Below are positions 4,023-61,278 of a stretch of 64,000 bases of DNA, piece after piece; the stretch's first letter is position 1, and each line of letters starts with the position of its first letter. The position numbers and the translations under genes are program-made. The stretch is from Bacteroidaceae bacterium (GTDB lineage: Bacteria; Bacteroidota; Bacteroidia; Bacteroidales; Bacteroidaceae), in NCBI GenBank assembly GCA_017469925.1, contig JAFUFK010000003.1, positions 13,281-77,280 on the forward strand. Reading direction: 5' to 3'. The notes under the pieces are model-generated. The model saw only the letters and a list, made by a program, of their open reading frames with translations, made no database searches and had not been told where the DNA came from.

Positions 4023-4103
4023 AACCAGTGACTGGTTAAGCCGAAACCAGTCACTGGTTTCGCCGAAAGGAGTGACTGGTTAAAATTTAACCAGTGACTG
4101 GTT
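4023..4103. repeat. four copies of the 15-bp palindrome AACCAGT(G/C)ACTGGTT at exact 22-bp spacing
   Basis: Palindrome centres lie at 4030, 4052, 4074 and 4096. Copy 3 has a degenerate left half (AAGGAGT). Copies 1 and 2 are mutually complementary over 17 nt (GAAACCAGTGACTGGTT / AACCAGTCACTGGTTTC). The array sits between the convergent stops at 3962 and 4161. Confidence 0.9.
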
Positions 4104-4160
4104 GCCAGGGAAGCAGATTCTCGTCCAGGGCAGACGGATTTGCCGTTTCCGATTCTACTT

Positions 4161-6815: not shown

Positions 6816-9800
6816 ATGAAAAAAATAATTATATTTTTGTTAACGGTTCTCCCTTCTTGCAACTCGCTCTTGGCGGAAAGTGTTATTGGTAAGGTGTCGG
6901 GGGGGCTGAATGTGAGTGAAACGGGAGCTGCAACGTACACGATTCCTATTAATTCACTGCCGAGTCCAAATGAATTTTCTCCCAGTATTTCATTAACATA
7001 TAATAGTCAAATGGGGAATGGTCTGGCAGGGTTCGGTTGGAACCTGTCAGGCCTTTCATCCATCACCATCGGCCCACGAAGCACATACTTTGACGGGACT
7101 GCTGAAGGAATGTACGAAGGTGACGACAACGCATACTTCCTTGATGGAATGCGCCTACTTTTGGTATCGGGCGAAAATGGGAAGCAAGGAGCTACATACC
7201 GCACCGAATCAGAACAGTATAGTGTCATCCGAATAGATTCGGTACTTGCGGAAACTCCCGCCATCTTTACCATAAAGAAAAAGGATGGCAGCACATATCG
7301 GTATGGAAGCAGTACGGGACGTGCCCGGTACACGGATAATGCTTCCTATGAGTGGGCACTTGACTATGCCGAAGACTGTTTAGGCAATTACATTGTCTAT
7401 ACCTATGAGCAATATGGCCTAACTCTATGTCCGTCGTCAATTACCTATGGCCGGAATAAGAACAATTCTTCAAGCCCTATTTATACGATTTCTTTCTCTT
7501 ACGGGTCAAGAAGTGACGAAATCCCGGTTCACAGGTTCGAGGCATCAATACCCTTCGCCATGAAACTCACGGGTATATCCTGCATGGTCCAAGGAAACTA
7601 TTATAGAACTTATCACCTTACGTATGACTATAATGTATATTCCCATCTTACATCTGTAAGAGAAGACGGATTGAACTCATCATCATACCCAGCCACATCC
7701 TTTGTCTGGGAGAACCTTCCCGAATATAACCTACAAGAGACGGCTCCCGGCATTCCTGCTCCCCCAGGTCAGGCTTTCTCCGACATACACTTCTTTGCAG
7801 CCGACGTGGACAATAACGGGCAAAGCGAACTAATTGGGCTCTATGATACAAATGGAACCGGAAATCAACTTAGGACTGCAAAAATATGGAAGCAAAATCC
7901 TTCTACGGGAAGTTTCTATATAGATGAGTCCCATACTACTGCAAGTGGTATAGCTGTGGGAAACGTATATATGCCTTGCCGACAGGGAGGTTCTTTAGCA
8001 CACGTTAGCAACAGACAGGACAATTCCATCCTGCTTCCATACTATTCCAACCTGGGAGGTGATGGGAGAGTTGTCTTTGACTGTATTAAGGAAGAAGTAA
8101 CCTTTCCTTATTTCATGCAAAGTGCATCCGACAAAATCTGCCACACAATAGCCGATATAGACCGAGATGGATATGATGAAATCATACTGGTAGAGAGGAA
8201 AGAAAACCATCATGCCACTTCCACACGACCGGTAAGCATCATTCGCCTCAACTTAAGCAACAGTTCGTTGACGAGTAGTAACCTTACGATGGACCTGAAT
8301 GGCGACCCCACTCGTATTGCCAGTGCAGACATAAACGGCGATGGAATGTCTGATCTTTTGGTATGCACAACTGAAGGTTTCTATATCTACTGGAACAATG
8401 CCGGGAGTTTCAGCGATACCAACCGCTATTATGGGACGGGATTTGGCGAATGTGATGTCTTGGAGATTGGAGACGTAAATGCCGACGGGTTGCCTGACCT
8501 CGTTATCAACAAACACAAATCAGAACTGACTACCCCAAATACGTGGCTCTGCGCAGTAAATAGTGGGACAACAACCGCCCCATTTTCTTTCTATGACATA
8601 GAAATTCTTGAAAACCTCGGGGCAAACAACTATGGGAATAATGAGGCCTACTGTCTGTTGCATGATCTGGATGGAGATGGAAAAATGGACTTAGTAGCAG
8701 GAATGGCCTTCCACCTGAATAATCACTTTAATAGCGGACAGGTTGTCCTTCTAAAGTCAAACGGCGCGACATTCAGTTATTTAGAAAGTGCCACATTTGC
8801 AACCGAGAGCCTGTATCCTTCATTCGACAAAATCGTACAAGGAGACTTCGATGGTGATGGCGTTATAGAAATAATGTACTATGGTGGTGCATTTCACACT
8901 CCTTCCTCTACTGCTGCATGGCGCAGACTAAAACCTGCCGGATACTCTGCTGCATCCAATCGTATTACAAAAATTACTGATGGATTAGGTCAAATCCAAA
9001 AAATTGATTACGGACTTCTCACTCACGAGGATGTATATGAACAAGACTCAACACCGAGTTTTCCTCTACTTGGATTTAGGGCTGCAATGTCCGTTGCCAA
9101 ACGCGTAGAAGCTATCGCAAGCAATGACACATTGTGGACATCTTTTAAGTATGGCGATGCGCTCTATCATTGGCAAGGGAAAGGTTTCCTTGGATTTAAG
9201 AAAAAATCCATAACTTCGAGTGATGGCACAAAGGCGATGTCAGAATGTGGCATAAATATGGACTATTATGTACTATATCCACATGCTGAAAAGATCTATG
9301 CAAGCAACGATTGCCTCTGGAAAGAAAATATCAGTACAACGATTTTCAACCCTGTCGGTTCTAAAAGTTATTTTGTTTACAATCAAAACCAGAGGGAAGA
9401 TGATAGAGTAAATGGATATTTTGATATTTCTACACACTCCTATGGGGCATATGGAAATATCATAAACGAAGAACATACAGATGAAAAATTTGAATCGGCA
9501 TCCGAATATATGTACTGGGAAAGTAACAACCCCAACATATATATAAAAGGATTGCCTTCCGTCATCGAAACAACAAAGTCTGTTGATTCTTCTCAAGAGG
9601 AAACAGAAAGGATTGTATATACTCGAGAAAATAATACGGGGCTTCCCTTATCCTGTAAGACTTATCGCAACGGCACACTAGTAGAAACCACTCTATATAG
9701 TTATAACACATGTGGGCAATTGGTAACACTTACCACCATTAATGGCAACTCCACAGATTCGCTTACCACCACATACACTTATATGCCTAATGGCAGGCTA

Positions 9801-12752
9801 TCTCAAATAACAGACCCTATGGGATTAACTACGAGTTATGGTTATAACGTATATGGGAACGTCTTTTCAGAAAAGAATTATCTGGGATATTCCACACATC
9901 ACACATACGACAATATGTTGCGTGAGACACTCTCATATAGCCCAATCTCAAGAGTAGAAAACATATACGAACAAGGGGATTATGGAAACGCCGCATATAA
10001 AGTTACTACTACAGCCAAGGGAAAACCTACTACGATATCCTATTACGATAGTTTCGAACGAAAAATTGCTGAGGCGGAGAAACGTTTTGACGGGCGATTT
10101 CTTTATATTGATTATTCTTACTTAAAGAACGGACAATTAGGTTTTGTTTCATTTCCACATATTTCGCCATCAGTCTCGAATGAAGGCACATATAGTACCT
10201 ATGATTTTTATAATAGAAAAATTAGCGAAGTCGATACTCAAGGAAAGACCTCAACATGGGAATACGAACCTTTCGTAGTTAGCTCTAATGTTGAAGGGGT
10301 TGCCCAAACTACAACTTATGCCCATCGTAATGTCATAAATACAATTCAAAATCTTGCTGGGACAGTTGATTTTTCTGTAGATGCGTTTGGAAGGACAACA
10401 CAAATTGTGAAAGGGACAAATACCACCACTATTAACTATGACGATTTTGGGCGCACACTCCAGACCAATGACATGTTAGGGATAACGAGATCTTATGTCT
10501 ATGACAGCAATGGTCATCTTCAATCTGTAACACAAGGAAGTAGCACCAAATATACCGAATATGACAGATTCGGACGATTGCTTTCCAATACATTTCATGA
10601 TAGCGGAACGACAGACACACAAACTTATTATACATACAATGCGAAAAATCAACTTGTTTGTGATTCAAGTAGTAATCATGTATACAAATATACTTATGAT
10701 GCTTATGGCCGTCTCAAACAGGAAAACCGACGGGTAATAGCCAATAATACCGAGAGTATGACGTGCTCTTACACGTACAATTCGCTCAACCAACTGACCC
10801 AGAAAAACGTTGTACTGGGATCGACAGGTATAAATCTTACAGAAAAATATACTTATTCCAACGGATGGTGTCGAAGCATTTCTGTCAATGATTCTTTAGT
10901 ATGGAAATTGGTAAAAGAAGATTATAATGGTCATGTCCAGAATACATCTAATCATTTGGATAATATTTCATGGAGTTACGATATCTATGGCAATTTGTTA
11001 TCCAAATCCGTTTCTGGCGTTCACTCCTTAATACAATCTTATGATTACGACCTTACAACAGGGAATCTTATTCAAGACGATAACTCTTCCTATACTTATG
11101 ACGACCTTAATCGTCTGATTAAGTGGAACAATAATAATTATTCTTATGACGGAAACAATAATCTGACTTCCATCATTCCCCTGGGGACGCTTTCTTATAA
11201 CAATTATAAGTTGAGTCATGCAAATACGAACAATCCACTCAGTGTTACCCCTTATGAATGCAGTTTCGCTTATCTCAAATCCATAGAGCGCCCATATGGA
11301 ATCGAAGAAAACGGGAAAAGAGTAATATTTGCCTATAATGGTAACAAGCAGAGAGTCTGGATGAAAAGCTACGAATATCAGGCGCTGGGACATCCGACAT
11401 TATTGGGCACTCGCTACTACATCAGCGAAAATTATGAAATCGACCAGAAAAATGGCGAACACAAGCGCTACTATTATTATGTTGGCGGCACCCCATATGA
11501 TGCACCAGCAGTTGTACTGATAGAAGATTCCGTCCCTGTTATATATCAAATATATAGAGATAGAATCGGCAGCATTGTTATGTATGCCGGCAGGAATAGC
11601 AGCACCAGTCTTTCCTATAATCCGTGGGGTGTAAGATTCCCTACATCTAATGCACACTACTCTTCACTGATTGATGACGACGCTCTCTATTGCAAGTTTA
11701 TAAGGACATATACAGGTCATGAGGAAATTCCCTACTTTGGCCTGCTCAATGCAAATGCTCGTATCTACAATCCCCATATAGGTCGTTTCATGAGCCCCGA
11801 CCCGCTCCTGACCATAAATGGGGCCCCTCAAGACTTCAACCCCTATGTCTATGCGCGGAACAATCCACTATCCTATGTGGATCAGGATGGAGAATTCCCA
11901 TGGGTCATAATTGCAGCTGTTGCAGGAGGAACTATGAATGTCTTAACCAATTTAGATGATATAAAAGGATTTAAAGAAGGGGCTATATACTTTATAATAG
12001 GGGCAACCGATGCTGTACTTACAGCCACGGGGCATACTCTTACTGGTGCAATCCTTTTCGGAAGTGCAAACAATCTTATATCACAACTTATCAATAAGGA
12101 TTGGGATTTGAAAAGGATTAATTGTATGCATATCTTGAGCGAGGGATTTATTGCAGGCTATTCTTCATACATGGGATCATATGTAAGTGCCCTTATATCC
12201 TCTCCTATTAACAAACTCACTTCTCATATCTCCAATTCACTACTAAGAGAATCAGCAAGTAAGGCTTTGGGTAATTATATTTCTAGTTTTGCTTCTCAAA
12301 CAGGATTTAATTTACTTAAAGGATATGATTTTTCAACATCTATCAAAAATGCTTCTACATCTTCTCTCGTTGATTTGGCCATGGGGGCAATAGATGGATT
12401 TGCATCTGAAAAAATAAGGCTAAATCTGCAAAAAAAATATGATTCCATTAATTCTAACACACAAGATATTATCAATAGAGCCATGGATAGTCCCAATTAC
12501 CCTTATGGGAGTGGAAATATTAATGTTTTTGTAGGAAAAGATGCGGATGGAATTATCAGAAATGTATGTATGAGCAAATATAACACTATCAACAATTTTA
12601 AAAATTCATTAGAATATAGTATTGTAGCAACAAATTGTTCTGCCCGACAAGGAGATTATTTAAAGCAAGCCCTTATCAATCTATGGGGTCTTGGAAAAAA
12701 TGGTGGCACATTAAAATATAATAAGCGAAATACTTTTTCACCCAGATGGTAA
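6816..12752 (+). CDS. RHS-repeat polymorphic toxin (SpvB/TcB-like N-terminus, FG-GAP/VCBS repeats, YD-repeat shell, RHS core, variable C-terminal domain)
   Basis: Lipobox-like signal (FLLTVLPSC). SpvB-type start: TGAATYTIPINSLPSPNEFSPSISLTYNSQMGNGLAGFGWNLSGLSSI. Six DxDxDG-type FG-GAP motifs (DVDNNGQSEL, DIDRDGYDEI, DINGDGMSDL, DVNADGLPDL, DLDGDGKMDL, DFDGDGVIEI). Many YD repeats (YTYMPNGRL, YGYNVYGN, YDAYGRL...). RHS core end: YTGHEE..ARIYNPHIGRFMSPDP...YARNNPLSYVDQDGE. Confidence 0.85.
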   Translation: MKKIIIFLLTVLPSCNSLLAESVIGKVSGGLNVSETGAATYTIPINSLPSPNEFSPSISLTYNSQMGNGLAGFGWNLSGLSSITIGPRSTYFDGTAEGMYEGDDNAYFLDGMRLLLVSGENGKQGATYRTESEQYSVIRIDSVLAETPAIFTIKKKDGSTYRYGSSTGRARYTDNASYEWALDYAEDCLGNYIVYTYEQYGLTLCPSSITYGRNKNNSSSPIYTISFSYGSRSDEIPVHRFEASIPFAMKLTGISCMVQGNYYRTYHLTYDYNVYSHLTSVREDGLNSSSYPATSFVWENLPEYNLQETAPGIPAPPGQAFSDIHFFAADVDNNGQSELIGLYDTNGTGNQLRTAKIWKQNPSTGSFYIDESHTTASGIAVGNVYMPCRQGGSLAHVSNRQDNSILLPYYSNLGGDGRVVFDCIKEEVTFPYFMQSASDKICHTIADIDRDGYDEIILVERKENHHATSTRPVSIIRLNLSNSSLTSSNLTMDLNGDPTRIASADINGDGMSDLLVCTTEGFYIYWNNAGSFSDTNRYYGTGFGECDVLEIGDVNADGLPDLVINKHKSELTTPNTWLCAVNSGTTTAPFSFYDIEILENLGANNYGNNEAYCLLHDLDGDGKMDLVAGMAFHLNNHFNSGQVVLLKSNGATFSYLESATFATESLYPSFDKIVQGDFDGDGVIEIMYYGGAFHTPSSTAAWRRLKPAGYSAASNRITKITDGLGQIQKIDYGLLTHEDVYEQDSTPSFPLLGFRAAMSVAKRVEAIASNDTLWTSFKYGDALYHWQGKGFLGFKKKSITSSDGTKAMSECGINMDYYVLYPHAEKIYASNDCLWKENISTTIFNPVGSKSYFVYNQNQREDDRVNGYFDISTHSYGAYGNIINEEHTDEKFESASEYMYWESNNPNIYIKGLPSVIETTKSVDSSQEETERIVYTRENNTGLPLSCKTYRNGTLVETTLYSYNTCGQLVTLTTINGNSTDSLTTTYTYMPNGRLSQITDPMGLTTSYGYNVYGNVFSEKNYLGYSTHHTYDNMLRETLSYSPISRVENIYEQGDYGNAAYKVTTTAKGKPTTISYYDSFERKIAEAEKRFDGRFLYIDYSYLKNGQLGFVSFPHISPSVSNEGTYSTYDFYNRKISEVDTQGKTSTWEYEPFVVSSNVEGVAQTTTYAHRNVINTIQNLAGTVDFSVDAFGRTTQIVKGTNTTTINYDDFGRTLQTNDMLGITRSYVYDSNGHLQSVTQGSSTKYTEYDRFGRLLSNTFHDSGTTDTQTYYTYNAKNQLVCDSSSNHVYKYTYDAYGRLKQENRRVIANNTESMTCSYTYNSLNQLTQKNVVLGSTGINLTEKYTYSNGWCRSISVNDSLVWKLVKEDYNGHVQNTSNHLDNISWSYDIYGNLLSKSVSGVHSLIQSYDYDLTTGNLIQDDNSSYTYDDLNRLIKWNNNNYSYDGNNNLTSIIPLGTLSYNNYKLSHANTNNPLSVTPYECSFAYLKSIERPYGIEENGKRVIFAYNGNKQRVWMKSYEYQALGHPTLLGTRYYISENYEIDQKNGEHKRYYYYVGGTPYDAPAVVLIEDSVPVIYQIYRDRIGSIVMYAGRNSSTSLSYNPWGVRFPTSNAHYSSLIDDDALYCKFIRTYTGHEEIPYFGLLNANARIYNPHIGRFMSPDPLLTINGAPQDFNPYVYARNNPLSYVDQDGEFPWVIIAAVAGGTMNVLTNLDDIKGFKEGAIYFIIGATDAVLTATGHTLTGAILFGSANNLISQLINKDWDLKRINCMHILSEGFIAGYSSYMGSYVSALISSPINKLTSHISNSLLRESASKALGNYISSFASQTGFNLLKGYDFSTSIKNASTSSLVDLAMGAIDGFASEKIRLNLQKKYDSINSNTQDIINRAMDSPNYPYGSGNINVFVGKDADGIIRNVCMSKYNTINNFKNSLEYSIVATNCSARQGDYLKQALINLWGLGKNGGTLKYNKRNTFSPRW

Positions 12753-12779
12753 ATACTTGCCTATATCAGAGAATAGCAT

Positions 12780-12787
12780 TATCTTTG
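12780..12787 (+). promoter_or_regulatory. possible internal -7 promoter box (TATCTTTG) for the immunity gene
   Basis: Matches the TAnnTTTG consensus, 24 nt upstream of ATG 12811 and just after the RHS stop. Confidence 0.35.
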
Positions 12788-12810
12788 CCATAAAAATAAA
12801 AAAATAGAAT

Positions 12811-13347
12811 ATGTTCAATTTTATAAAAGAGAAAAAGCGAGCCAGAGAAAGAAAACGCATGAACATAAAGATTGGCGACATCTTTTGCATAAAAATGGAC
12901 GATGGGAGTCTGCGTTTCATGCAATACGTAGCGGACGACAAAACTGAAATGTCTCCTGTAATAAGAATCTTTAAGAAGGTCTATCCTTCAGATTATCAAT
13001 TTCAGACAGAAGAAATTGTTGCAGATGAAGTGGACTTTTACTCGATGACTTGGTGCTTGTCGCATGGCATACAAGATGGTGATTGGCAAAGAGTGGGTTG
13101 GAGTAATAATGTGGGAGATACAGAGAACATAATGTTTCGCTTTTACCACGATGCTTTTAACTTTGTAAACAAGAAGAAATCTTACCAATGGTATGTATGG
13201 AAAATCAATCACGAGCGCATTGATATCGGAGAACTTACTGATGAATACAAAAAACGTGCTGATTGGGGATTAATATTCTCCACGGTACAACTTTTGGAAA
13301 AGATCAGACATGGTGATTTTACTACAATACAAACCAAAATTGAGTAA
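12811..13347 (+). CDS. candidate cognate immunity protein of the RHS toxin
   Basis: It lies directly downstream of the toxin on the same strand and has no signal peptide. The same AT-rich composition continues through it. The segment MNIKIGDIFCIKMDDGSLRFMQYV resembles Imm-type immunity proteins. An alternative start is ATG 12859. Confidence 0.45.
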   Translation: MFNFIKEKKRARERKRMNIKIGDIFCIKMDDGSLRFMQYVADDKTEMSPVIRIFKKVYPSDYQFQTEEIVADEVDFYSMTWCLSHGIQDGDWQRVGWSNNVGDTENIMFRFYHDAFNFVNKKKSYQWYVWKINHERIDIGELTDEYKKRADWGLIFSTVQLLEKIRHGDFTTIQTKIE

Positions 13348-51468: not shown

Positions 51469-54400
51469 TTAGTTCTTTCCTAATATGATGTTGACGAGAG
51501 CCGTCACGTCGGCTATGGTGATGCTCTGGTCGCCATTGACGTCGGCCGCCTCGTGGTCGTACTGGCCGGTGGTGTCCTTGCCCAGGATAATGTTGACGAG
51601 AGCCGTCACGTCGGCTATGGTAATCGAGCCGTCGCGGTTGACGTCGCCGGGGAGGGTGGTCACGATGTCCACGACGCTCCAGCGGGAGGCTTCGCCCTGA
51701 TTATCCCAACGTACCACGGGAGGCGCGGCAGAGTCATAGCCTGCCTCGTGGAAATAGGTGTAGCCACGGGCCGTACTGATATTCACCATGCCAGGCGTAC
51801 AGATGTCGAAAAGGAATTCGGCACCCTCGTCGGCAGAGACGGAATAGGCGGTATTGAGTGTGGTACTGGAGAAGTCGGTGAAGGCCTGCACGTTGCCCTC
51901 TGTCATCGAGATGGTGTAGGTGGCCTCCTTGCCCTCCACGCGGGTCAGCGTCAGTACGGTCGTAGGATCATCCTCCACGTCGGATGCGGGTACGGTGACG
52001 AGGCCGGTCGTATTATATACCGAAGAAGTGCCATAGCCGATGTAACTCTCGCCGATACGGCTGCCCGAACTCTTGATGCGGTACTGGCCTGTCTCGGGCC
52101 AAATGACGTTAGCTCCGACGATGGAACGCATCTCCTCGTAGGCGTATGGACTGCACGCAGTGGCCAGGGCCTGGCAGGCGTCGTAGTGCTCGTCGCAAAC
52201 GGACTTCTTCAGACCGAAGTACTGGTCCACATTGGTCGTGAACCAAGGAAGCAGATAGGCCTCGACGGTCGGGGTGCGGTCCATGGCCGCCGAGGGGTCG
52301 AAGTCGCCCAGTTCAATGATAGCATTCCGATTGCCCTCGTCGAGGGTGGAATAGGAGTCTATCAAAATCGTGCCTACAGTATTCACGTTGATGTTATGGG
52401 TTTCGTCGAACCGGAAGAACCAGGGATAGGCTTCATCGCCAGAGGCCGAAATCTCGATGTGCCGAGGCTCGTCGCTCAGGGTGTTGTCGGGGGTCAGGAA
52501 TTTGCCCGTGTGGATGCTATAGAGGTAGTAGCGATCCTCCGACTTCAGGATGGCAAAGTGCTCGCTCTCCATTTCCGTATCCACGACACCCTTGGTGGTC
52601 AGGCTCTCGCTCGTCGCGCTCCAAGTGCCACGGGAGTTGGTAATAATGTATATCTTCTCGTTGCTCAGGTCGGCCAAGTCGGTGACATAGGTGTAATCCG
52701 TCGGGACGGGAGCTCCAAGTACGGTCAGGGCCTCCGTGGGGTCGAAGTCGCCGACGGGGGCTATCGTGTATTGGTTGCCTGCGTCCAGAGTTGACCAGCC
52801 GTTGATGACCAGACCAGGCGCATAGCCCGAACTCGTATTGATGACGTTGCTGCCATACTGGAGTTGGAACAGGCCACTGCCCAGGTCCTTCAGGGTAATG
52901 GGGGTAGGCTCGATGTTCGTGACATCGCCCGTAGCATTGACGAACTTACCCGCCTCGATGCTCCAGAGGTAGAACTGCGACTCATAGGATATGAGGGCAA
53001 AGTCAGAGGCCGTGAAACTGCTTATTGAGGTAGATACCAACTGATTGTCGGAGACACCCAGTGTTCCGCGGTCGCAGAAGATGGTGTAGGCACGGGCGTT
53101 GCTGATTTCGTCCGTCGAGGTGATGGGCAGCCACGACAATGCCTCCGAGGGATCGAACGTGCCAGCAGGCATAATGGCCAACTGGTTGCCCGAGTCGGTG
53201 ATATAGTTCCAGTTGGTCACGACTCCAGGGTTACCCGCCGTAGAGACATTTATCTGGTCCCCCGTCCCCACGAACTTGATGGCCGTAGGATAATCCTCGA
53301 CGTCCGTTGACAACAGCGTGATTTCGTGACGAACACCAGGCGTGACGAGCGTGGTCGTGGGACCGCTGTCGCCAACAAACTTCCCCTCGCCTACGTTGTA
53401 GAGATAGTTCTTGCCGTTCTTCTCGACAAGGGCAAATTGCTGCTGCGGGTCCGACTCGTCCGGTGTCAGACCAGCAAGAGCCGTGGGACGCAGTTGGGTG
53501 GAACCCTCGGGGACACACAGCCAACCACGGGCAGCTGTCCGGATGGTATAGTACTTGTAGTTGCTGACTTCCGTAAAATCTGTAATCGGAGTATCGGCGT
53601 CGGCATCATAGCACTCGCCCATGGCGTAGTCCTTGCCGTCGCCCTGCGCAGCCTTGAGGGTATAGGTACCATTCTTCAGCCCTGCCGCAATGGTGCTCGA
53701 GACGGTGAAGGAGTTGGTGTTGGCGATATAGACGAGATTGCCGTCGGCGTCGTAAATCTTGAAGCCGACAGCACCCTTGCCGCCCGTCATCGTCACCTTA
53801 GTCCCACTCAGGGTATAGTCGTATGGCGAGACTACCTTATTGGCATACGTCTCATAATAGCCCACTTCGCCGAAGGTGCTCGTAGCCGCGCCGTTGTAGG
53901 TGGCCAGCGTACTACCCACGCCGCGGTCCTCGATGAACATGATGTTGCCGCCCTTCTTGGTATATTGTTGCATGGCCGAACGGACGGAGTTGACCATGGC
54001 GTCGGTCACCTTGATGTAGTAAGTGCTGTAATCGGGGAAAGCGTAGATGCCCGATTCCGGGATGTCTTTATCATTGGATACCGCGGGCGACGTCTTCCAG
54101 AATCCCCACGCTTCGAAGAACTCCGAAAGGTCGGTCTGCGTAATCTCGGCGGCGTACTGGGCAATCTTCAGATAGTCCTGCGTGGCATTGGCGGGACTGC
54201 TGGAGTTGGTACTCTTCGACAGGCCGCTGCTACGCAATTTGCTATATAAGGCCGACATGAAGGAGAAGCCCGTGTTGCCTCCCGAGGGCTGATAATTGCC
54301 CAGATAGTCGAAGTAGAGCCACAACTGGAAATACATCTTGTTGGAAATCCATACATCGCTGTAATCTCCCGACTGGGTGCGCATGCCCCCATAGTCTATC

Positions 54401-56502
54401 CACGAATAGCCACCATCCTGGTTAAAGCGCGAAATCATTGCTTTCACGCCTTCTCCACGGCTGGAACGCGTGCTTTGGAACAACTCTGAATCTTTGGCCA
54501 GCAGATTGACCGCCTGCGCCAATGAGTTGTTCGAGGATTCCGTCTGCCCAGCAATGTTGATGGGCCCTTGGTGCCCATGTCCCAGTTCGTGCTCAATGAC
54601 CCAGATGGCACCACCATTAGTACCGATATTGCTGAGGTTGCTGTAATTAAAGGTATCGCCCGTCGTAATGCCGGGGTGGCTGCTGCCATGGTTGCCGTCG
54701 CTCCAGAAGGGATTGGTGCCCACCGTCCCATTGTCGAAGGGGTTGACCATCATCTTGTACTGCCCGGTACTCTTATATTGGTCGCAACCGGTCAGGCTTT
54801 GTTCCGTATCGAAGATGAAGTCCCATATCTTCATCACGCCAGTGGCATTCGACTCGCCCTTCACACTATTCAGATAGACATTCAGCATGACGGAGTTGCC
54901 CTTCACATGCAGATAAGTGCCCTTGAACATGTTCGATTTCAGCCAAGCCCAGTCGTCGTTGGTATGGCCGCGATGCATGTCGAAGCAACCGTTACAGGTA
55001 CCGCCTTCAATGTGGACCTTGATGTCGGGATAGTTGTTGCAAGATTCGTCGGTATTGTTGAGCAGATAAGTGATGAAGATTTCACAATCCGCCGTGACGT
55101 ATATTGCATTGTAGCCCTGCTGAAGCGTGGTAGTTGCGCCCGTGCGGTTGGCACCGATGACAAGTTCAGCCTCCAGTGTGGCGTTGCTGTCCTTCACGTC
55201 GCTGTCCACAAACAGATAGAGCATGTCGCCCGTCTTTGCCTGAATACCTGTAGGATTCGACAGTCGGGCGAAACGCCCAATCTTAAGCTTCGAATACCAA
55301 AGCTCGCAGTTCGAGTATATTTCGTATTCGTGGATGCGGAAGTCTTTCTCATAGGCGTTCCACGTCGCGTCGGAGTTCCACGTGTCGTTCTTCACACGAA
55401 CGGCCATTTCCTGCAAGGCCGCTGGCAGGCTCGACATGGCCGAGCGCAACTGGGCGTCGGTCATCGAAGCATACGTACTCTTCAGCGTCGTGCAGGCCTT
55501 GTCGGAAAAGAAGGTTGAGAGGGCACTGGTGTGGTCAGCCGACGTCACGGCCTTAATCTCTGCAAGTTCTGCCTCTTGGGCCGAGGTCAGCGTCACCTCC
55601 TCCAGTTGCCAATACGAAGCGTCGGCCTCATAATTCCAACCCACTACATAGTAACTCTGGCTTGCTGCGGTATGCAATCCATACCAACTGCTACTGGCAT
55701 TGCTAAACGAGAACCATGTAGTGCCATCTGTCGTTTTTGAGGATACACTGAAGTTACACTTATTGGAACCCAACGTCCATTGCCCGCTCGTTGATGAGTT
55801 GGGCTGGATATACTCCTCCGTCAATACATTCTGGAACGTATAGTAACTGCCCGACTTCGTGATTTTCCACATTTGGGCATACGACCCGGCATTCGTCGTC
55901 ACGCTGCTCAATTTATTGCCCGTAGCCTCCATGCTTAAGTCGGAGTAATAGCTATGTAAGCGATATGTCTTCCCACTGGTGATAGAGGAAACATAAGATA
56001 CCTGCTCCACCGTCACCGTGAATGACGTGATGACTATCCAAGGACTATCCGTCGAAACCGCAAAGGTTGCCGACGAAGTGCTCAGGCCTGAAACCGCAAC
56101 CGTCGTGGGGCTCGATGAATTCGTCGATATCGTTTGTGCAGAACCTCCCGACGGGGTGATGGTGGAGGCCGTCGAGGAGTTGGTATATGCCTTTATGGTG
56201 TAGCCCGTAATCTGGTAGTTCCCTTCCACGGCAATCGTATAATTGTCGGTGTGGATGCTGAACTGGCTGCTGGTCACAATCATGTTGTTATTACTACACG
56301 AAAGGGTTACCTGCGGGTCTGCAGATGTGGACATCCATTTGTTGGCATATTGGCTCGAACTGGACAAGGTCAGTTCCGTAGAACCATTCCTATAAAAGGT
56401 TCCCGTCGATGTGCCGATTGTTATTGTCTGGCTGGCAGCCATGCTCTCCGTACCGACAAGCGTCAGCAGCAGGGCAGTAAGTAGGTTAAGCAGTCTTTTC
56501 AT
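51469..56502 (-). CDS. large secreted M60-like (enhancin-type) zinc metallopeptidase with repeated putative binding modules and a C-terminal dockerin
   Basis: Signal MKRLLNLLTALLLTLVGTESMAA. HEXXH in WVIEHELGHGHQGPINIAGQTESSNNS (M60-like HExxHxxQ...E). Three ~148-aa tandem modules. The C-terminus has two 22-aa dockerin-type Ca-binding repeats. Confidence 0.7.
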   Translation of the reverse strand: MKRLLNLLTALLLTLVGTESMAASQTITIGTSTGTFYRNGSTELTLSSSSQYANKWMSTSADPQVTLSCSNNNMIVTSSQFSIHTDNYTIAVEGNYQITGYTIKAYTNSSTASTITPSGGSAQTISTNSSSPTTVAVSGLSTSSATFAVSTDSPWIVITSFTVTVEQVSYVSSITSGKTYRLHSYYSDLSMEATGNKLSSVTTNAGSYAQMWKITKSGSYYTFQNVLTEEYIQPNSSTSGQWTLGSNKCNFSVSSKTTDGTTWFSFSNASSSWYGLHTAASQSYYVVGWNYEADASYWQLEEVTLTSAQEAELAEIKAVTSADHTSALSTFFSDKACTTLKSTYASMTDAQLRSAMSSLPAALQEMAVRVKNDTWNSDATWNAYEKDFRIHEYEIYSNCELWYSKLKIGRFARLSNPTGIQAKTGDMLYLFVDSDVKDSNATLEAELVIGANRTGATTTLQQGYNAIYVTADCEIFITYLLNNTDESCNNYPDIKVHIEGGTCNGCFDMHRGHTNDDWAWLKSNMFKGTYLHVKGNSVMLNVYLNSVKGESNATGVMKIWDFIFDTEQSLTGCDQYKSTGQYKMMVNPFDNGTVGTNPFWSDGNHGSSHPGITTGDTFNYSNLSNIGTNGGAIWVIEHELGHGHQGPINIAGQTESSNNSLAQAVNLLAKDSELFQSTRSSRGEGVKAMISRFNQDGGYSWIDYGGMRTQSGDYSDVWISNKMYFQLWLYFDYLGNYQPSGGNTGFSFMSALYSKLRSSGLSKSTNSSSPANATQDYLKIAQYAAEITQTDLSEFFEAWGFWKTSPAVSNDKDIPESGIYAFPDYSTYYIKVTDAMVNSVRSAMQQYTKKGGNIMFIEDRGVGSTLATYNGAATSTFGEVGYYETYANKVVSPYDYTLSGTKVTMTGGKGAVGFKIYDADGNLVYIANTNSFTVSSTIAAGLKNGTYTLKAAQGDGKDYAMGECYDADADTPITDFTEVSNYKYYTIRTAARGWLCVPEGSTQLRPTALAGLTPDESDPQQQFALVEKNGKNYLYNVGEGKFVGDSGPTTTLVTPGVRHEITLLSTDVEDYPTAIKFVGTGDQINVSTAGNPGVVTNWNYITDSGNQLAIMPAGTFDPSEALSWLPITSTDEISNARAYTIFCDRGTLGVSDNQLVSTSISSFTASDFALISYESQFYLWSIEAGKFVNATGDVTNIEPTPITLKDLGSGLFQLQYGSNVINTSSGYAPGLVINGWSTLDAGNQYTIAPVGDFDPTEALTVLGAPVPTDYTYVTDLADLSNEKIYIITNSRGTWSATSESLTTKGVVDTEMESEHFAILKSEDRYYLYSIHTGKFLTPDNTLSDEPRHIEISASGDEAYPWFFRFDETHNINVNTVGTILIDSYSTLDEGNRNAIIELGDFDPSAAMDRTPTVEAYLLPWFTTNVDQYFGLKKSVCDEHYDACQALATACSPYAYEEMRSIVGANVIWPETGQYRIKSSGSRIGESYIGYGTSSVYNTTGLVTVPASDVEDDPTTVLTLTRVEGKEATYTISMTEGNVQAFTDFSSTTLNTAYSVSADEGAEFLFDICTPGMVNISTARGYTYFHEAGYDSAAPPVVRWDNQGEASRWSVVDIVTTLPGDVNRDGSITIADVTALVNIILGKDTTGQYDHEAADVNGDQSITIADVTALVNIILGKN
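51488..51621 (-). repeat. near-identical 32-nt DNA duplication encoding the two dockerin repeat segments
   Basis: ATGTTGACGAGAGCCGTCACGTCGGCTATGGT occurs at 51488-51519 and 51590-51621, a 102-nt period, and encodes TIADVTALVNII twice. Confidence 0.85.
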
Positions 56503-56521: not shown

Positions 56522-57334
56522 TCAGGGTATTTTTTGCATTGCGGGCTTGATAGACTGGTTGTAGTCGCTCCCCATGGCAAGGACCTTGCCGTCGGGGCCC
56601 ACGAGGATATAGTAGGGGATGTTGCGTATGCCCAGGCGAGTGAGCAGGGGGCCGCCCCATCCGGTGTAGTCGCAGTAGGTGCGCCATCGCATGGAGTCGG
56701 GGATGGACTCGGCGAAGCGCGTGTTGCGCGGCTCCAGGTCGAGGCTATAGCTGAAGGCTCGCAAGTCGGGATGTTCGTTGAGGGCCGTGCGGGTGTTGTA
56801 GTTGACGATGTTGCTGCCATGCTTCCAGTCGGCCCAGAAGGTCATGAGCAGGTAAGTGCCTCGCTGGTGCTTGACGATGCCAGAGCGAGGCAGTCGGCTG
56901 CCGACTTTCAGGGGGCGCGGGGCCACCTGACGCCCCGAGGGCAGGACGCTGTCGGCACCCTCCACCGAGACCTGGCTCAGGCTCAGGGCGTCGCCCTTGA
57001 TACGTACGTCGCAGCCCGAGTGGGCCTGGAAGGCGAGGGTCGAAAAGTTGGGATAAAGAATGACGAAAGTGTATGGGTCGTCGCCTTCCACCTTCGTCTG
57101 GTAGTCGAAGCGCCCGCGCAGGATGTGCAGGGTGTCGATGGTCGAGAGTCCTCCGTCGGGACTGTAGAGTAGCAGGTCGGCCTGCGGCAGGTTCTCGAAC
57201 TGGCCGCGAATGCGCACCCTACCCTTCTGCGGCCCGCAGGAGGCAAGGAGGAGAATAATAAAAAGGGCGACCCCTACCCCCAGCCCTCCCCGAGGGGAGG
57301 GAGTGCATACTTTTGCACATGGTGTTCCTTGCAT
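56522..57334 (-). CDS. thioredoxin-fold lipoprotein (DUF4369-like N-domain + TlpA-like domain) lacking the CXXC motif
   Basis: Lipobox LLLASC. The position normally occupied by FWASWCGPC reads FWADWKHGS. The start ATG 57334 lies inside the loop of an inverted-repeat element. Confidence 0.6.
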   Translation of the reverse strand: MQGTPCAKVCTPSPRGGLGVGVALFIILLLASCGPQKGRVRIRGQFENLPQADLLLYSPDGGLSTIDTLHILRGRFDYQTKVEGDDPYTFVILYPNFSTLAFQAHSGCDVRIKGDALSLSQVSVEGADSVLPSGRQVAPRPLKVGSRLPRSGIVKHQRGTYLLMTFWADWKHGSNIVNYNTRTALNEHPDLRAFSYSLDLEPRNTRFAESIPDSMRWRTYCDYTGWGGPLLTRLGIRNIPYYILVGPDGKVLAMGSDYNQSIKPAMQKIP

Positions 57335-57397
57335 AAGTGTATGTTCTATGTCGGTATATACTCCCTCCCCTCGGGGAGGGTTGGGGGTGGGGGTCGC
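57267..57397. repeat. GC-rich inverted-repeat element: 37-bp arms flanking a 57-bp spacer
   Basis: The left arm is GCGACCCCTACCCCCAGCCCTCCCCGAGGGGAGGGAG (57267-57303). The right arm (57361-57397) is its reverse complement with 2 mismatches. Each arm contains its own CCCTCCCC-GAGGGGAGGG hairpin. Confidence 0.9.
57308..57315 (+). promoter_or_regulatory. -7-type promoter box (TACTTTTG) inside the inverted-repeat spacer, currently pointing away from the downstream gene
   Basis: It matches the TAnnTTTG consensus on the plus strand, but all neighbouring genes are on the minus strand. Confidence 0.35.
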
Positions 57398-57406
57398 TTC
57401 AGTCTT

Positions 57407-59098
57407 TTACTTCACGAGACTTGCGATGGCGCTGGCGTACTGAGCAAACTCAAGGTCGTTCTTGGCACGCTCCTTCAGCGACGCATCCTTCTCGATGGCC
57501 TGGCGCAGACTGCTTACGAGGCCCGAGGCATCGCTCGTGCGGGCAGCCAGTATGGCTTGCAGGTACGAGGTGGTGGCATCGGCCTTCTTCACGCCGGCCA
57601 GTGTCTGGCGGGCAGCGGCATAGTCGCGGTTGAGCAACTGGGCCAGGGCTGCCGTGTTGGTCTTGGCACCAGCCAGTGCCTGGGCAGCCTGCTGATAGTT
57701 GCCCTTGGCCAGGTTGTACGAACCCAGCACCTCGTTGTACGTGTTGGCGCCAAAGCCCTGAGCCAGCAGTGTCTCGGCGCGGTCCAGGTTACCCTCGCGC
57801 AGGGCGAGCAGAGCCTGGTTGGTATTGACCTCGGCAGCCGACGACTTGACGCTCTTGGCCTTCTCCAGGTAAGCGGCAGCCGACTGGTAGTCGCCCTCGC
57901 TGTAGGCCACCTGGGCCAGGTTGTTCAGGGCACGGTAGTCGTTGGGGAACAGGCGCTGGATGGTCTGGTTCCAGTCCTTCTGCTCGGCAGGTGTCTCTAC
58001 GAGCATGTTGGCACCATAGACCAGTTCTTCGACGCTCAGTTGCGAGGGGTCCTGCTTATACTGGTTGAGGATTTCCTCGTCGCTGCGGCCGATGATTTCG
58101 TAGTTCACGATGAGGCGTGCGCGGCGCAGTTCGGGCAGGATGCCGTCCTTGATGTCGGTATAGACGTTGCTGATGTTGCGAATCTGCTGCTCACGCTCCT
58201 CGGGGTCCTGATACATCGAGAGGACGGAGAGGATGACCTGCTTGTCCTGCAGGTTGCTGGCCTCGACGAGTTGCTGGAATCCGTCCCAGTCTTCGGCCGT
58301 GTAGCGGGTGTTGATGTCGGCGTCCATCTTTATCTTCTTCAGTTCCTTGCGCAGGTAGTCGGCGCTGACGTTCTGGCGGCGCTCGGCCAGACGCTCGTTG
58401 AGCGAATAGCTGCCGTCGGGCGAGGCGTATGCACTTACCTCGATGGCATCCAGCGCGCGGCCTTCGGCGTCGTCATTGATTTCCTTCAGCACCTTGGCCA
58501 GGTCCTTCATGCTGACGCTCTGCAGTTCGCTCGTGCGCAGGTTCGACTGGCCGATGAGGAACTTGATGTTGGCCTCCTGCTTCTGCTCGATGACGCGCTG
58601 GAACTGGTCGGGAGCCAAGGCGGCGTTCGTACCGTCGAGGCAACGGCCCAACAGGTCTTCGGTGGCCACGACGCCGTAGCCCACCTTCACGTCGGGCAAC
58701 TGCACCACCTTCTTACCCAGGCGGGCGTCGAAGGTCATGTAGAGGTCGCTCTTCAGCATCTCGGGCGTGTAGCGGAAGTTGGCCTTCATGTTGTACGTGC
58801 CGCCCAGTTTGTAGTTGACGTCCGTCCCGTTGCCTTCCACCTTCTCGCCCTGGAAGGTCACGCTCTGTGCCTGAGCCTCGCCACCCTGGTAGCGCAGTAC
58901 GGGCGTAGCGGTGATTTGGGCCTTCTTCTTCATATACTTCTCGGGGAACGTGGCCGAGATGTTGGCAGCCACCTCGCCGCCCTGCTCCACCAGGGGCGTA
59001 GGCGTAACGCGGAAGTCGTCGCTCGTGAGTTTACCCAGTTTCGAGCAGCTCGTCAGCACGAGAGCCGCTGCCAATGTCAGGAAAATGCTTTTCTTCAT
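57407..59098 (-). CDS. lipoprotein with OmpA-like segment and C-terminal TPR repeats
   Basis: Lipobox LVLTSC. The segment VSAYASPDGSYSLNERLAERRQNVSADYL resembles the OmpA C-terminal-like motif. The C-terminal ~200 aa are TPR-like (AYSEGDYQSAAAYLEKA...). Confidence 0.55.
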   Translation of the reverse strand: MKKSIFLTLAAALVLTSCSKLGKLTSDDFRVTPTPLVEQGGEVAANISATFPEKYMKKKAQITATPVLRYQGGEAQAQSVTFQGEKVEGNGTDVNYKLGGTYNMKANFRYTPEMLKSDLYMTFDARLGKKVVQLPDVKVGYGVVATEDLLGRCLDGTNAALAPDQFQRVIEQKQEANIKFLIGQSNLRTSELQSVSMKDLAKVLKEINDDAEGRALDAIEVSAYASPDGSYSLNERLAERRQNVSADYLRKELKKIKMDADINTRYTAEDWDGFQQLVEASNLQDKQVILSVLSMYQDPEEREQQIRNISNVYTDIKDGILPELRRARLIVNYEIIGRSDEEILNQYKQDPSQLSVEELVYGANMLVETPAEQKDWNQTIQRLFPNDYRALNNLAQVAYSEGDYQSAAAYLEKAKSVKSSAAEVNTNQALLALREGNLDRAETLLAQGFGANTYNEVLGSYNLAKGNYQQAAQALAGAKTNTAALAQLLNRDYAAARQTLAGVKKADATTSYLQAILAARTSDASGLVSSLRQAIEKDASLKERAKNDLEFAQYASAIASLVK

Positions 59099-59533: not shown

Positions 59534-60760
59534 TTATTCGTAACGCAGGGTGAGGAGGCGGGAGGGATGGAACGTGGCCTGGGCCACGTCGAGAAGTTGC
59601 TGGGCGGTGAGCCGGTCGATGGAGTCGCAGAGTTGCCGAAGGGTCTGCGTGGTGCCGAGGTGGAGCATGCGGCGCCCCATGCCGATGGCCACGTTCTCGC
59701 CGTTCTCCCAGGCCAGGGCCACCTGGCCCTTCAACTGGCGCTTGGCGGCCTGTAGGGCCGAGGGCGAGAGGGGTGCGTCGCAGAGGCGTTGGAGTTCGGT
59801 GCGGACGAGGCGCAGACAGCGCTCCACATCCTTGTGGTCGCAACCGAAGTAGGTCTGCCAGAGTCCCGTGTCGGTGTAGCCCGCCATGGAACTCTCTACG
59901 GTATAGACGAGTCCGCGGCGCTCGCGCAGGGCGAGGTTGAGCCGCGAGTTCATGCCCGGGCCGCCCAGGAGGTTGTTGAGCAGGTAGAGGCTCGTGTAGT
60001 GCGGGTCGCCCATCGGATAGGCCTGACAGCCCAGGACGACGTGGGCCTGGTGGGTGTGCTTCGGGATAAGGGTGACTCCACCCCCCTGTCCCTCCCGAGG
60101 GAGGGGAGTGGTTAGCGTGGGTTGCTCAATGTCTGGCTGGCATATATTCCCCTCCATGACAGGGAGGGGTAAGGGGAGAGTCCGCAGGGTCACGTCGCCC
60201 AGCACGAACAGCACCATGCGCTCGGGGCGATAGAGGCGACGGGTGAAGCGCAGGAGGTCGTCGCGACGGTACTGGCGCAGGCGGTCGGCCGAGCCCAGTA
60301 TGTTGCGCCCCAGGGGGTGACAGGGGAAGAGGAGCCGGTCGAAGTCGTCGTAGATGAGTTCCGACGGGGAGTCGTTGTAACTCTCGATTTCGTCGATGAC
60401 GACCTCTGCCTCGCGCTCCAGTTCGCGCTCGGGGAAGGTGCTGTGGAGGGTAATGTCGAACAGGAGGTCGAGGGCCCGGCCGAGGTGCTGACGCAACGTC
60501 GAGCAGTAATATATGGTGTGCTCCTTGCCCGTATAGGCATTCAGGTCGCCACCGACCGACTCCATACGGTTGAGTATGTGCCAGGCGCGGCGGCGCTCGG
60601 TGCCCTTGAACGACATGTGCTCGATGAAATGGGCCATTCCGGACTCGCTGTCGGTCTGGTGGCGAGTGCCTGCCTCGACGGCAATGCCACAATAGACCAC
60701 CTGTCCGGGGCGGTGGTCGATGACAATGCGCAGGCCGTTGTCTAAGGTTGTTGTTTCCAT
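59534..60760 (-). CDS. M16 (pitrilysin/insulinase) family zinc peptidase
   Basis: ORF 59534-60910 trimmed to ATG 60760 (METTTLDNGLRIV). It carries the inverted zinc motif HFIEH (HxxEH) followed by MSFKGT. Confidence 0.8.
   Translation of the reverse strand: METTTLDNGLRIVIDHRPGQVVYCGIAVEAGTRHQTDSESGMAHFIEHMSFKGTERRRAWHILNRMESVGGDLNAYTGKEHTIYYCSTLRQHLGRALDLLFDITLHSTFPERELEREAEVVIDEIESYNDSPSELIYDDFDRLLFPCHPLGRNILGSADRLRQYRRDDLLRFTRRLYRPERMVLFVLGDVTLRTLPLPLPVMEGNICQPDIEQPTLTTPLPREGQGGGVTLIPKHTHQAHVVLGCQAYPMGDPHYTSLYLLNNLLGGPGMNSRLNLALRERRGLVYTVESSMAGYTDTGLWQTYFGCDHKDVERCLRLVRTELQRLCDAPLSPSALQAAKRQLKGQVALAWENGENVAIGMGRRMLHLGTTQTLRQLCDSIDRLTAQQLLDVAQATFHPSRLLTLRYE
60072..60186. repeat. diverged copy of the GC-rich inverted-repeat element embedded in frame in the M16 CDS
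   Basis: GTGACTCCACCCCCCTGTCCCTCCCGAGGGAGGGGAG aligns by eye at roughly 75-80 percent to the left arm at 57267-57303. A right-arm-like segment TTCCCCTCCATGACAGGGAGGGGTAAGGGGAGAGTCCGC follows a 39-nt spacer ending in GCATATA. Confidence 0.55.
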
Positions 60761-61278
60761 AAGTAAAGTACGGACTCGGGGCCCATGTTGAAGAGGAGAT
60801 CGACGATGCTGAGGTCGGGCATGAACCCACAGCGGTCGGAGAAGAGTTGGTAGTAGGGCAAGGGCCGCCCGCCTTTCGCAGGCAGGGAGGCTATGTCTAT
60901 CAGTTCGCACACTTTCTCCTGAAGGACTTGATTGAAATCTATCAGAAACTCGTACTTCTTTTCATAAAAAGGGGCGAATTCATCGGCATAAAATTCAAAA
61001 AAGGGTGTACGCCCATAACTGCTCTTCAAGGCATTCCAATGGAGATGGCGCCACTGGCCATGGTCGCTGATGCGAATGTCGCGCATGGGAGTGCGGTAAG
61101 GCACGAACTTGACCACAGGTATGGAAAGAGCCAATGGCCCGTTAGGCGAGGCTATGTAGCATCGGTTCCTAAGCGTTTGTTTGCGATAAGGCTCATCGGT
61201 GTCGATGCTGTATGTCTCGCCCTGCGCCAACTGGGCGTAGTACGAAATGGGGGCAAGGTAGTAGCTGGGAAGAAGCAT
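60742..61278 (-). CDS. WbqC family protein
   Basis: ORF 60742-61299 trimmed to ATG 61278 (MLLPSYYLAPISYYAQL...YRKQTLRNRCYI...LSIPV), the characteristic WbqC-like N-terminus. Confidence 0.7.
   Translation of the reverse strand: MLLPSYYLAPISYYAQLAQGETYSIDTDEPYRKQTLRNRCYIASPNGPLALSIPVVKFVPYRTPMRDIRISDHGQWRHLHWNALKSSYGRTPFFEFYADEFAPFYEKKYEFLIDFNQVLQEKVCELIDIASLPAKGGRPLPYYQLFSDRCGFMPDLSIVDLLFNMGPESVLYLWKQQP

Follow-up and report, generated by a model that had tools for sequence, protein, structure and literature searches.

Short palindromic sequences that occur as singlets and as inverted doublets around a short spacer, in tens or more copies, and that persist for a long time at orthologous sites, are known from the repetitive extragenic palindromic (REP) elements. 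Their doublets (REPINs) have a counterpart in a small enzyme gene, that of the REP-associated tyrosine transposase (RAYT), which is itself bracketed by two inverted units (Bertels and Rainey, 2011; PMC3116915). Here, we describe a 131-bp inverted-repeat cassette at positions 57267-57397 of a 64,000-nucleotide stretch from a Bacteroidaceae bacterium (assembly GCA_017469925.1, contig JAFUFK010000003.1, forward strand 13,281 to 77,280), called the window below. The cassette lies after the stop codon of a tetratricopeptide repeat (TPR) protein gene and ahead of the hydrophobic core in the signal peptide of a lipoprotein. The repeat family to which it belongs shares the traits listed above, but the gene bracketed here encodes a DUF559 nuclease of the Vsr fold instead of a HUH/Y1 transposase, no GTAG/CGTC tag is present, several diverged DUF559 copies stand within operons where REPIN systems have one RAYT per genome, and the arms are often read in frame. 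We consider it likely that the cassette is a non-autonomous inverted doublet, similar to a MITE (a miniature transposable element with inverted repeats) or a REPIN, of a dispersed family found in Bacteroidales (Prevotella-type) of gut and rumen, in which a DUF559 gene is carried by the full-length members.

Other described elements resemble the cassette in part. It has the size and structure of a MITE (131 bp, thus below 300 bp, no coding capacity, terminal inverted repeats of 38-44 nt, a core of 38% G+C), and longer elements with the same arms exist, but these encode the DUF559 nuclease and not a known transposase. Rickettsia palindromic elements (RPEs; Ogata et al., 2000, reviewed in PMC10969869) are in-frame palindromic repeats in coding genes, tolerated as an extra peptide, and the in-frame insertion that defines them is also found here, one arm reading, as a predicted peptide, TPSPRGGLGVGV after the ATG and ahead of the signal-peptide core. 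They differ from our family, which occupies the extreme 5′ end of genes or gene junctions with a new start codon, occurs in a different phylum and is tied to an endonuclease gene, the window insert lying, moreover, within a signal peptide that is cleaved off. In Neisseria, the Correia elements (100-155 bp) have terminal inverted repeats, lie upstream of genes and form co-transcribed hairpins; their TA target duplication, sigma-70 promoters and integration host factor site were not seen here, nor was inversion. Lastly, free-standing Vsr-like (EDxHD) homing endonucleases such as I-Bth0305I (PMC3239194) are small Vsr-fold nuclease genes inserted as selfish DNA with host expression preserved. DUF559 is a different family of the same clan (PMC3424549), no intron or intein is involved here, the gene is bracketed by palindromic arms, and homing would only be an extrapolation.

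The arms of the cassette, 57267-57304 and 57360-57397, are 38-nt reverse complements with 2 mismatches (57275 T/C and 57283 G/A), a pair that an earlier examination of the letters (the sequence-only reading) had recognized as 37-bp arms with 2 mismatches; the spacer that it placed between them is also present, although it measures 55 nt (57305-57359, 38% G+C) and not 57 bp. A repeat finder stretches the arms to 44 nt with 91% complementarity (57267-57310 and 57354-57397, 43 nt between), and 0 matches are expected for such a pair in shuffles of the window. Each arm contains its own palindrome, CCCTCCCC-GA/TC-GGGGAGGG, with a core at 57284-57301 in the proximal arm (8-bp stem, 2-nt centre) and at 57363-57380 in the distal arm. 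Read on the gene strand, the distal arm (57354-57397, plus), which is upstream for the gene, consists of a C-rich tail GCGACCCCCACCCCCAA, the palindrome CCCTCCCCGAGGGGAGGG and an inner motif AGTATATAC, and the proximal arm (57267-57310, minus) reads GTATGCACT, CCCTCCCCTCGGGGAGGG, CTGGGGGTAGGGGTCGC, read in frame as VCTPSPRGGLGVGVA of the predicted signal peptide. The AT-rich stretch between the 44-nt arms (57311-57353, minus) is the loop; it holds the start codon, is single-copy and lies outside the repeat family. Computed as RNA, the gene strand gives a single long hairpin (-92 to -94 kcal/mol, z = -10 to -12) with CCUUUUUAUUAUU directly after. Right after the long stem, CCTTTTTATTATT (57254-57266, minus) is a terminator-like U-run which also codes for LFII of the signal-peptide core, and T-rich runs after the arm are found in orthologs and in many other copies. 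This is the only doublet within the 64-kb window, and an Rfam search of the cassette returned only sub-threshold matches to generic hairpin (miRNA precursor) models.

Evidence for a dispersed family came from metagenomes. Four gut metagenome runs contain the locus, SRR12529327 and SRR12529338 among them, and the assembled contigs (Logan) of these runs were aligned to the region. The locus contig showed zero differences to the window in the four metagenomes and one contig per run carried the spacer, always in the same configuration, while the arm matched many other contigs of the same metagenomes. The 31-mer unitig of the arm had depths of 1550, 800, 1130 and 1700, against 25.5, 12.8, 14.3 and 37.3 for the locus contig, which places the arm at 46-79 times the genome depth. 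Scanning metagenome contigs with the pattern ACTCCCTCCCCNNGGGGAGGG gave at least 120 loci. Among the matches listed, 16 correspond to an unrelated soil palindrome and the other ~104 are of gut/rumen type, with 45-60% G+C, the same G-rich tail and an origin mostly in gut or rumen samples. Common to these ~104 loci is the oriented unit (GTAAC/GTATA)T-ACT-CCCTCCCC-TY-GGGGAGGG-YYGGGGWGGGGG-CTTT. The family unit of ~40 nt has three segments: its tail is G-rich (YYGGGGWGGGGKY), the palindrome is CCCTCCCC-NN-GGGGAGGG, and the inner motif is short and reads AGTATATAC in the subfamily of the window.

Arms were found singly, as tail-out inverted doublets and as parts of full-length elements. Counted strictly among the matches listed, ~137 cores have no partner and 12 inverted doublets are tail-out. 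The inner distance of the doublets is 35-122 nt, or 419-420 nt with an enclosed DUF559 gene; the corresponding distance in the window is 61 nt. Looser inspection by eye revealed further doublets with a degenerate partner arm, and the spacers are mutually unrelated. Many copies have neither promoter nor ATG content, an outcome that the sequence-only reading had named in advance as the mark of a generic repeat; the evidence favors the alternative that it had kept in reserve, namely a hairpin or a miniature transposable element. For the classification of host contexts, frames of at least 180 aa were used (at 90 aa or more, spurious GC-rich frames dominated), with 36 cases ambiguous. A preference of the arm for lipoprotein genes was considered and rejected, just a minority of the copies preceding signal peptides. 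A phmmer search with the 33-aa signal peptide against 1.84 billion representatives gave 4 hits, all of them long open reading frames (ORFs) called across arm arrays, and hence no usable census of host proteins.

Two further observations concern repeats of this kind. In some contigs, arms in the same orientation recur every 210-306 nt (L047, 28-1121; L128, 157-758), and in the predicted proteins P0196-P0198, the largest with 2539 aa, the peptide encoded by the arm occurs 7-12 times; here, gene callers have translated repeat arrays. Also, a separate and highly conserved element is present in soil metagenomes (L017, L019, L045, L051, L058 and others), made of a perfect palindrome ACTCCCTCCCCTAGGGGAGGGAGT between TTCCAAGGCATC and GTCACCCATGTG and often located 30-60 nt from contig ends.

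The doublet intervals of ~420 nt correspond to an ORF of ~125 aa with a DUF559 domain (PF04480, E values of 1e-32 to 1e-35). DUF559 proteins are endonucleases of the Vsr fold, within the PD-(D/E)XK group. A DUF559 gene lies 13-100 nt from the arm in 14 of the ~104 arm-selected loci, most of these genes being flanked by inverted arms on both sides. The association also holds in the opposite direction. Homologs of one arm-bracketed DUF559 protein number 572 at E ≤ 1e-10, the named ones being labelled DUF559 or endonuclease domain protein in metagenome-assembled genomes (MAGs) of Bacteroidaceae or Prevotella. All five DUF559 genes picked by protein similarity alone were arm-bracketed and located between co-oriented genes, at 4 distinct junctions: argG|argC (two), S9 peptidase|mutS2, cysD|cysN and sufC|sufD. 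In every case inspected the arm-bracketed gene was DUF559, with no Y1 transposase among them. The copies are 44-76% identical, with the Vsr-type residues D55, D59, E70, D72, G73, H76 and R101 invariant, and their nearest solved structure is 3HRL, a DUF559 protein of Neisseria. We found no paper in the literature connecting DUF559 to such a repeat family.

The arm composed of tail, palindrome and AGTATATAC, as in the window, precedes DUF559 genes in L165 and L073, and the distal arm of the window with its downstream sequence (..GGGGAGGGAGTATATACCGAC..ATG) resembles the arm and DUF559 start of L165 (..GGGAAGGGAGTATATACGACCGAAGGATG). A 9230-nt contig with a depth like that of the locus contig (26.3 against 25.5 in X1, 11.6 against 12.8 in X2) contains two arms 415 nt apart, each with 4 mismatches to the window arms, around an interval that aligns at 82% to the DUF559 gene of L073. 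From this depth and content, the genome of the window very probably carries a full-length DUF559 copy.

Two observations on DUF559 outside these junctions should be mentioned. In a Novosphingobium MAG (L006, 535-1154), an off-target hit of a stricter arm pattern discussed below, DUF559 is flanked by very similar palindrome-plus-tail units (CCCTTCCCC..GGGGAAGGG, TTGGGATGGGGG); the partnership of DUF559 with palindromes may extend past Bacteroidales, or may have arisen twice. A DUF559 gene with arm-like palindromes was also detected within a UDP-galactopyranose-mutase-like ORF (L087, ~4088-4540; L061, ~4362-4814). There, the insertion is inside a gene and not at a junction, and the reading frame continues without a stop out of DUF559 to the host protein's C-terminal half (..VPLREGFREAFHQLVYCGPIDQYF..).

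Full-length elements have a constant order: upstream host gene, arm with its C-rich tail outward, DUF559, restart ATG, in-frame arm and N-terminus of the downstream host protein. The ATG follows the DUF559 stop by a few nt or overlaps it, as ATAATG. Thus, ArgC is read through the arm as MNTDKHITSSPRGGIKVGVLGAAGYTGGEL (parts MNTDKHITSSPRGG-IKVGVLGAAGYTGGEL), LeuC as MFENQGSNTNTPSPWGGPGRGLTLFDKIWDSHVV (parts MFENQGSNTNTPSPWGGPGRGL-TLFDKIWDSHVV), MutS2 as ..PLPREGNGGGAA-IEKKIGFDEIRTLL, CysN as ..SLPSGRFGGGPGGG-..LLRLLTAGSVDDGKSTL and the lipoprotein of L073 as MEMKNKITRVYTPSPRGGFGVGVSILLF...SC (parts MEMKNKITRVYTPSPRGGFGVGV-SILLFSILLFVVSC), SufD being likewise read in frame. The frame TPSPRGG... 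runs through the arms in L073, L079, L093 and L114, with the close variant TSSPRGG in L143. The G-rich strand of the arm contains zero stop codons in any frame; therefore, an upstream ATG needs only to be in register for the host gene to be restored.

The order in the window is TPR gene, distal arm, spacer with ATG, proximal arm as TPSPRGGLGVGV, hydrophobic core and lipobox, which makes the cassette, in its predicted layout, the full-length architecture minus the DUF559 ORF. As the sequence-only reading had proposed, the lipoprotein ORF (56522-57334, minus) starts at an ATG in the spacer (57334-57332) and reads MQGTPCAKVCTPSPRGGLGVGVALFIILLLASC... through the proximal arm. This ATG is the sole in-frame ATG, GTG or TTG ahead of the hydrophobic core, because the two arm mismatches, at 57275 and 57283, change the family-consensus codons TTG/GTG to CTG/GTA; in related species these codons could act as in-frame starts within the arm, and some gene calls begin MGVVLF.... 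The insert sits in a cleavable signal peptide removed at Cys33, so that the mature lipoprotein is unchanged: signal peptidase II would cut off everything that the element encodes.

The junction itself has a history in relatives. The TPR-DUF4369 gene pair is syntenic in all relatives fetched. In element-free orthologs the two genes abut or overlap (TAAGAAATG in L137, ATAATG in L140) and the signal peptide is short and canonical (MKKFLPLIAVFLFAAC). L010 keeps the ancestral ATAATG with one arm in frame after the ATG, L015 has a degenerate single arm at the junction, and L012 and L141/L142 have doublets with an ATG in the spacer, diverged arms, unrelated spacers and no TAnnTTTG. In a rough tree built from the mature proteins, orthologs with the element are interleaved with those that lack it; the junction was therefore hit, or cleared, several times. 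Folding is retained in the diverged doublets of L012 and L141 (-61 and -62 kcal/mol, z of -5.5 and -3.8). Element-free orthologs possess a near-perfect hairpin of 16-21 bp over the lipobox codons (TCTTCCTTTTTGCGGC..GCCGCAAAAAGGAAGA), a few codons downstream (L140, ~2525-2575, -48 kcal/mol, z -6.5; L137, ~1200-1250), and this region folds weakly in repeat-bearing orthologs, the window included. We cannot say whether the lipobox hairpin is a structure wanted at the junction or a feature attracting the element.

At the level of sequence, the data thus document the family membership of the cassette, the association with DUF559 in both directions, the junction-plus-restart architecture and the patchy distribution among orthologs. 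Full-length elements lie between two co-oriented host genes that are normally transcribed together, and the start codon that they contain, in many cases overlapping the stop of DUF559, would keep the downstream host gene alive. Concerning mechanism, we hypothesize that the DUF559 nuclease spreads or maintains the arms, in a homing-like or RAYT-like manner, by analogy with described systems (PMC3116915, PMC3239194, PMC3424549), and that the doublet derives from a DUF559 element by deletion or is its empty partner. Overlapping stop and start codons, such as ATAATG, might be the target. In the transcript, the 38-bp GC stem and its U-run may damp both read-through and translation where the TPR gene passes into the genes of the lipoprotein and the M60 peptidase. 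What is unusual in this family is that the full-length partner encodes a DUF559 nuclease and that the family sits in operon junctions, read in frame. More tentatively, and with somewhat less than even confidence, the cassette could be the gene-less form of an undescribed selfish element, an arm-bracketed DUF559 gene homing into co-transcribed junctions in Bacteroidales and possibly beyond, with singlets and doublets as its non-autonomous progeny or targets. The translationally coupled start and the arm open in all frames would then spare the host, the downstream protein merely gaining an N-terminal extension.

The sequence-only reading had proposed something else, an ON/OFF invertible promoter. 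In such a switch, the spacer would be turned round, by a recombinase or by the arms recombining with each other, so that TACTTTTG faces the lipoprotein and M60 genes and a second ATG takes over. The geometry had been described accurately in that reading. The arms are 95% identical, and TACTTTTG (57308-57315, plus), a match to the Bacteroidetes -7 box TAnnTTTG, faces away from the gene and is the only such box in the spacer, and indeed between 57100 and 57600. When the spacer is inverted in silico, the box comes to end 32 nt upstream of an ATG reading MSVYTPSPRGGLGVGVALF... (MSVYTPSPRGG...) in frame. Like the invertons of Bacteroidales (PhaseFinder-type, with Mpi-family invertases), the cassette thus combines inverted repeats upstream of a surface lipoprotein/peptidase gene with a TAnnTTTG-like box between them. 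TAnnTTTG has a density of 0.5 per kb on both strands of the window, giving ~0.03 boxes expected in 55 nt, or an estimated ~0.05 after allowing for the AT-rich spacer, and Correia elements, of similar size, have been reported with promoters and inversion (PMC10969869). Yet the arms are generic repeats present in more than 100 unrelated contexts with heterogeneous spacers, neither box nor spacer is conserved in the orthologous doublets (L012, L141), and one ortholog (L010) has a single arm with the arm-encoded peptide kept; an arm that stands alone at the same place in a related species is not there for inversion. A TTTG at -33 is impossible, this position falling inside the GC-rich arm. The box is composed of the end of the arm inner motif (..ATAC) and TTTTG, related copies read ATACTTTTT or ATACTTTTC in its place, and it is probably a chance match and in itself weak evidence. 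The in-frame ATG available in both orientations is largely explained by the arm being open in all frames.

Only one orientation was seen in the four runs, in the other contigs fetched and in strain variant P0060, with no strand switch in contigs. Contigs with the sequenced orientation were recorded from at least 7 samples and the inverted form in no contig, this test having been made on assembled contigs, in which rare variants can stay hidden. Six contigs, from at least 5 samples, encode the exact protein and 4 others a strain variant with 98% identity; the N-terminus encoded by the spacer, MQGTPCAKV, is the same in both. The main ORFs of the 64-kb window include no recombinase, integrase, resolvase, transposase or DUF559 protein, in line with the remark of the sequence-only reading that no recombinase gene is nearby. 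Described Bacteroidales invertons span roughly 150-400 bp, far above the 55 bp found here. An invertible promoter therefore seems to us barely credible. A link to programmed inversion through DUF559 was also followed in the literature and dropped, as the enrichment reported there concerns inverted repeats inside genes of paralogous pairs (PMC9881135) and is silent on this element.

If the cassette were instead a regulatory hairpin of the host, it would be kept for its action as an intrinsic terminator, as an attenuator or as a gate for translation, placed between the TPR gene and those of the lipoprotein and M60 peptidase; the loop would display or hide the start codon, and the repeat ancestry would be secondary (exaptation). 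The stem of -92 kcal/mol with CCUUUUUAUUAUU directly after, the persistence of folding in the L012 and L141 doublets despite diverged arm sequences, and the lipobox hairpin, strong in element-free orthologs and weak in bearers, which hints that some hairpin is wanted at this junction, all speak for such a role. However, a terminator ahead of a start codon without its own promoter would silence an intact and conserved gene, single-arm orthologs do not have the long stem, and arm complementarity is equally expected from fresh insertions of lineage repeat variants or from arm-arm conversion; we regard this explanation as unlikely. An ordinary REP/REPIN moved by a RAYT (an IS200-like tyrosine transposase) elsewhere in the genome, with DUF559 as just a frequent neighbor, would account for the inverted doublet of short palindromes, the high copy number and the persistence at orthologous sites, which are REPIN traits (PMC3116915, PMC3337134). 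In REP sequences, the palindrome has a conserved tetranucleotide, GTAG or CGTC, at its foot (PMC3733652); this tag is missing here, the flank being usually GTAAC/GTATA-T-ACT and AGT... Moreover, the arm-bracketed gene is DUF559 in the 14 arm-selected loci and in 5/5 protein-selected genes, and no Y1 transposase was seen, no RAYT-directed search having been made. This option appears very improbable.

Several points weigh against the interpretation that we prefer, a non-autonomous doublet of a DUF559-associated family. No direct repeat or target-site duplication was found by eye at the flanks of the window cassette and of the other doublets inspected, and no clean pair of empty and filled junctions among the loci compared, which leaves transposition or homing as a hypothesis. 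The DUF559 copies that can be placed are old ones, each fixed in its position, and the argG|argC site is repeated across species and hundreds of samples, so that recent mobility of DUF559 would be speculative. The DUF559-bearing 9230-nt contig probably belongs to the genome of the window, an assignment made by depth only. A stricter arm pattern, CCCTCCCCNNGGGGAGGGNTGGGGGT, gave only 6 off-target loci (Sphingomonadales, Thermaceae) in a species-representative genome collection, the pattern being too strict. Three lineages hold a doublet with co-varying, still complementary arms at this junction, which could mean that the hairpin has been co-opted for a host function and is not inert; the effect of the hairpin on expression proposed above is itself something that we infer.

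The genes around the cassette are all on the minus strand, in the order M16 peptidase (59534-60910), TPR protein (57407-59098, 563 aa, the upstream host gene), DUF4369 lipoprotein (56522-57334, 270 aa, the downstream host gene) and M60 peptidase with dockerin (51469-56502, 1677 aa). The lipoprotein start codon occupies 57332-57334 (minus), and the codon of Cys33, in the lipobox LLASC, 57236-57238 (minus); C33 is nearly invariant in the homologue alignment. The C-terminal half of the DUF4369 lipoprotein is thioredoxin-like, without a CxxC motif, and more distant homologs (P0056-P0058) match the thioredoxin, Redoxin or AhpC-TSA families. FWADWKHGS of the window protein aligns with FWARWCQGT of the ortholog P0011; the window lipoprotein therefore probably lacks the redox cysteine motif of the thioredoxin fold, and it is probably not redox-active. 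A protein scan of the species-representative genome collection with the lipoprotein as query found no relative.

Elsewhere in the window, positions 6816-13347 form an island of low G+C (~40% against 58%) with a 1978-aa RHS/Tc-toxin-type protein (SpvB, TcdB_toxin_midN, FG-GAP and RHS repeats), whose gene is followed by one for an Imm26 immunity protein; it looks like a polymorphic toxin-immunity cassette, probably horizontally acquired. Also, a long lipid/polyketide-like cluster extends over ~18900-40800 on the minus strand. It contains three ketoacyl synthases, a ketoreductase, an MMPL-acyltransferase fusion, two amine-oxidase/desaturase-like flavoproteins, an O-methyltransferase, an AMP-ligase and a lipid A-type acyltransferase, and resembles clusters of the aryl-polyene/flexirubin type.

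At this locus, a surface lipoprotein/M60 peptidase unit thus loses its candidate switch for phase variation, and a repeat insertion takes the place of that switch. Gene callers and invertible-promoter finders will keep being misled by this family on Prevotella-type genomes, the consequences being long N-terminal extensions, truncated calls (such as a 231-aa version of the lipoprotein) and broken assemblies. The recurrent arrangement ties a palindromic repeat of dispersed occurrence to DUF559, which is a large domain of unknown function, and offers a tidy route by which an insert can occupy an operon and leave it intact. Should arms or empty junctions really be substrates of the nuclease, homing-like spread without introns or inteins would have a new model. 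Should the selfish-element hypothesis be true, the very large DUF559 family would gain a biological role, and a second partnership between an enzyme and a repeat, analogous to RAYT-REPIN but with another nuclease, would exist.

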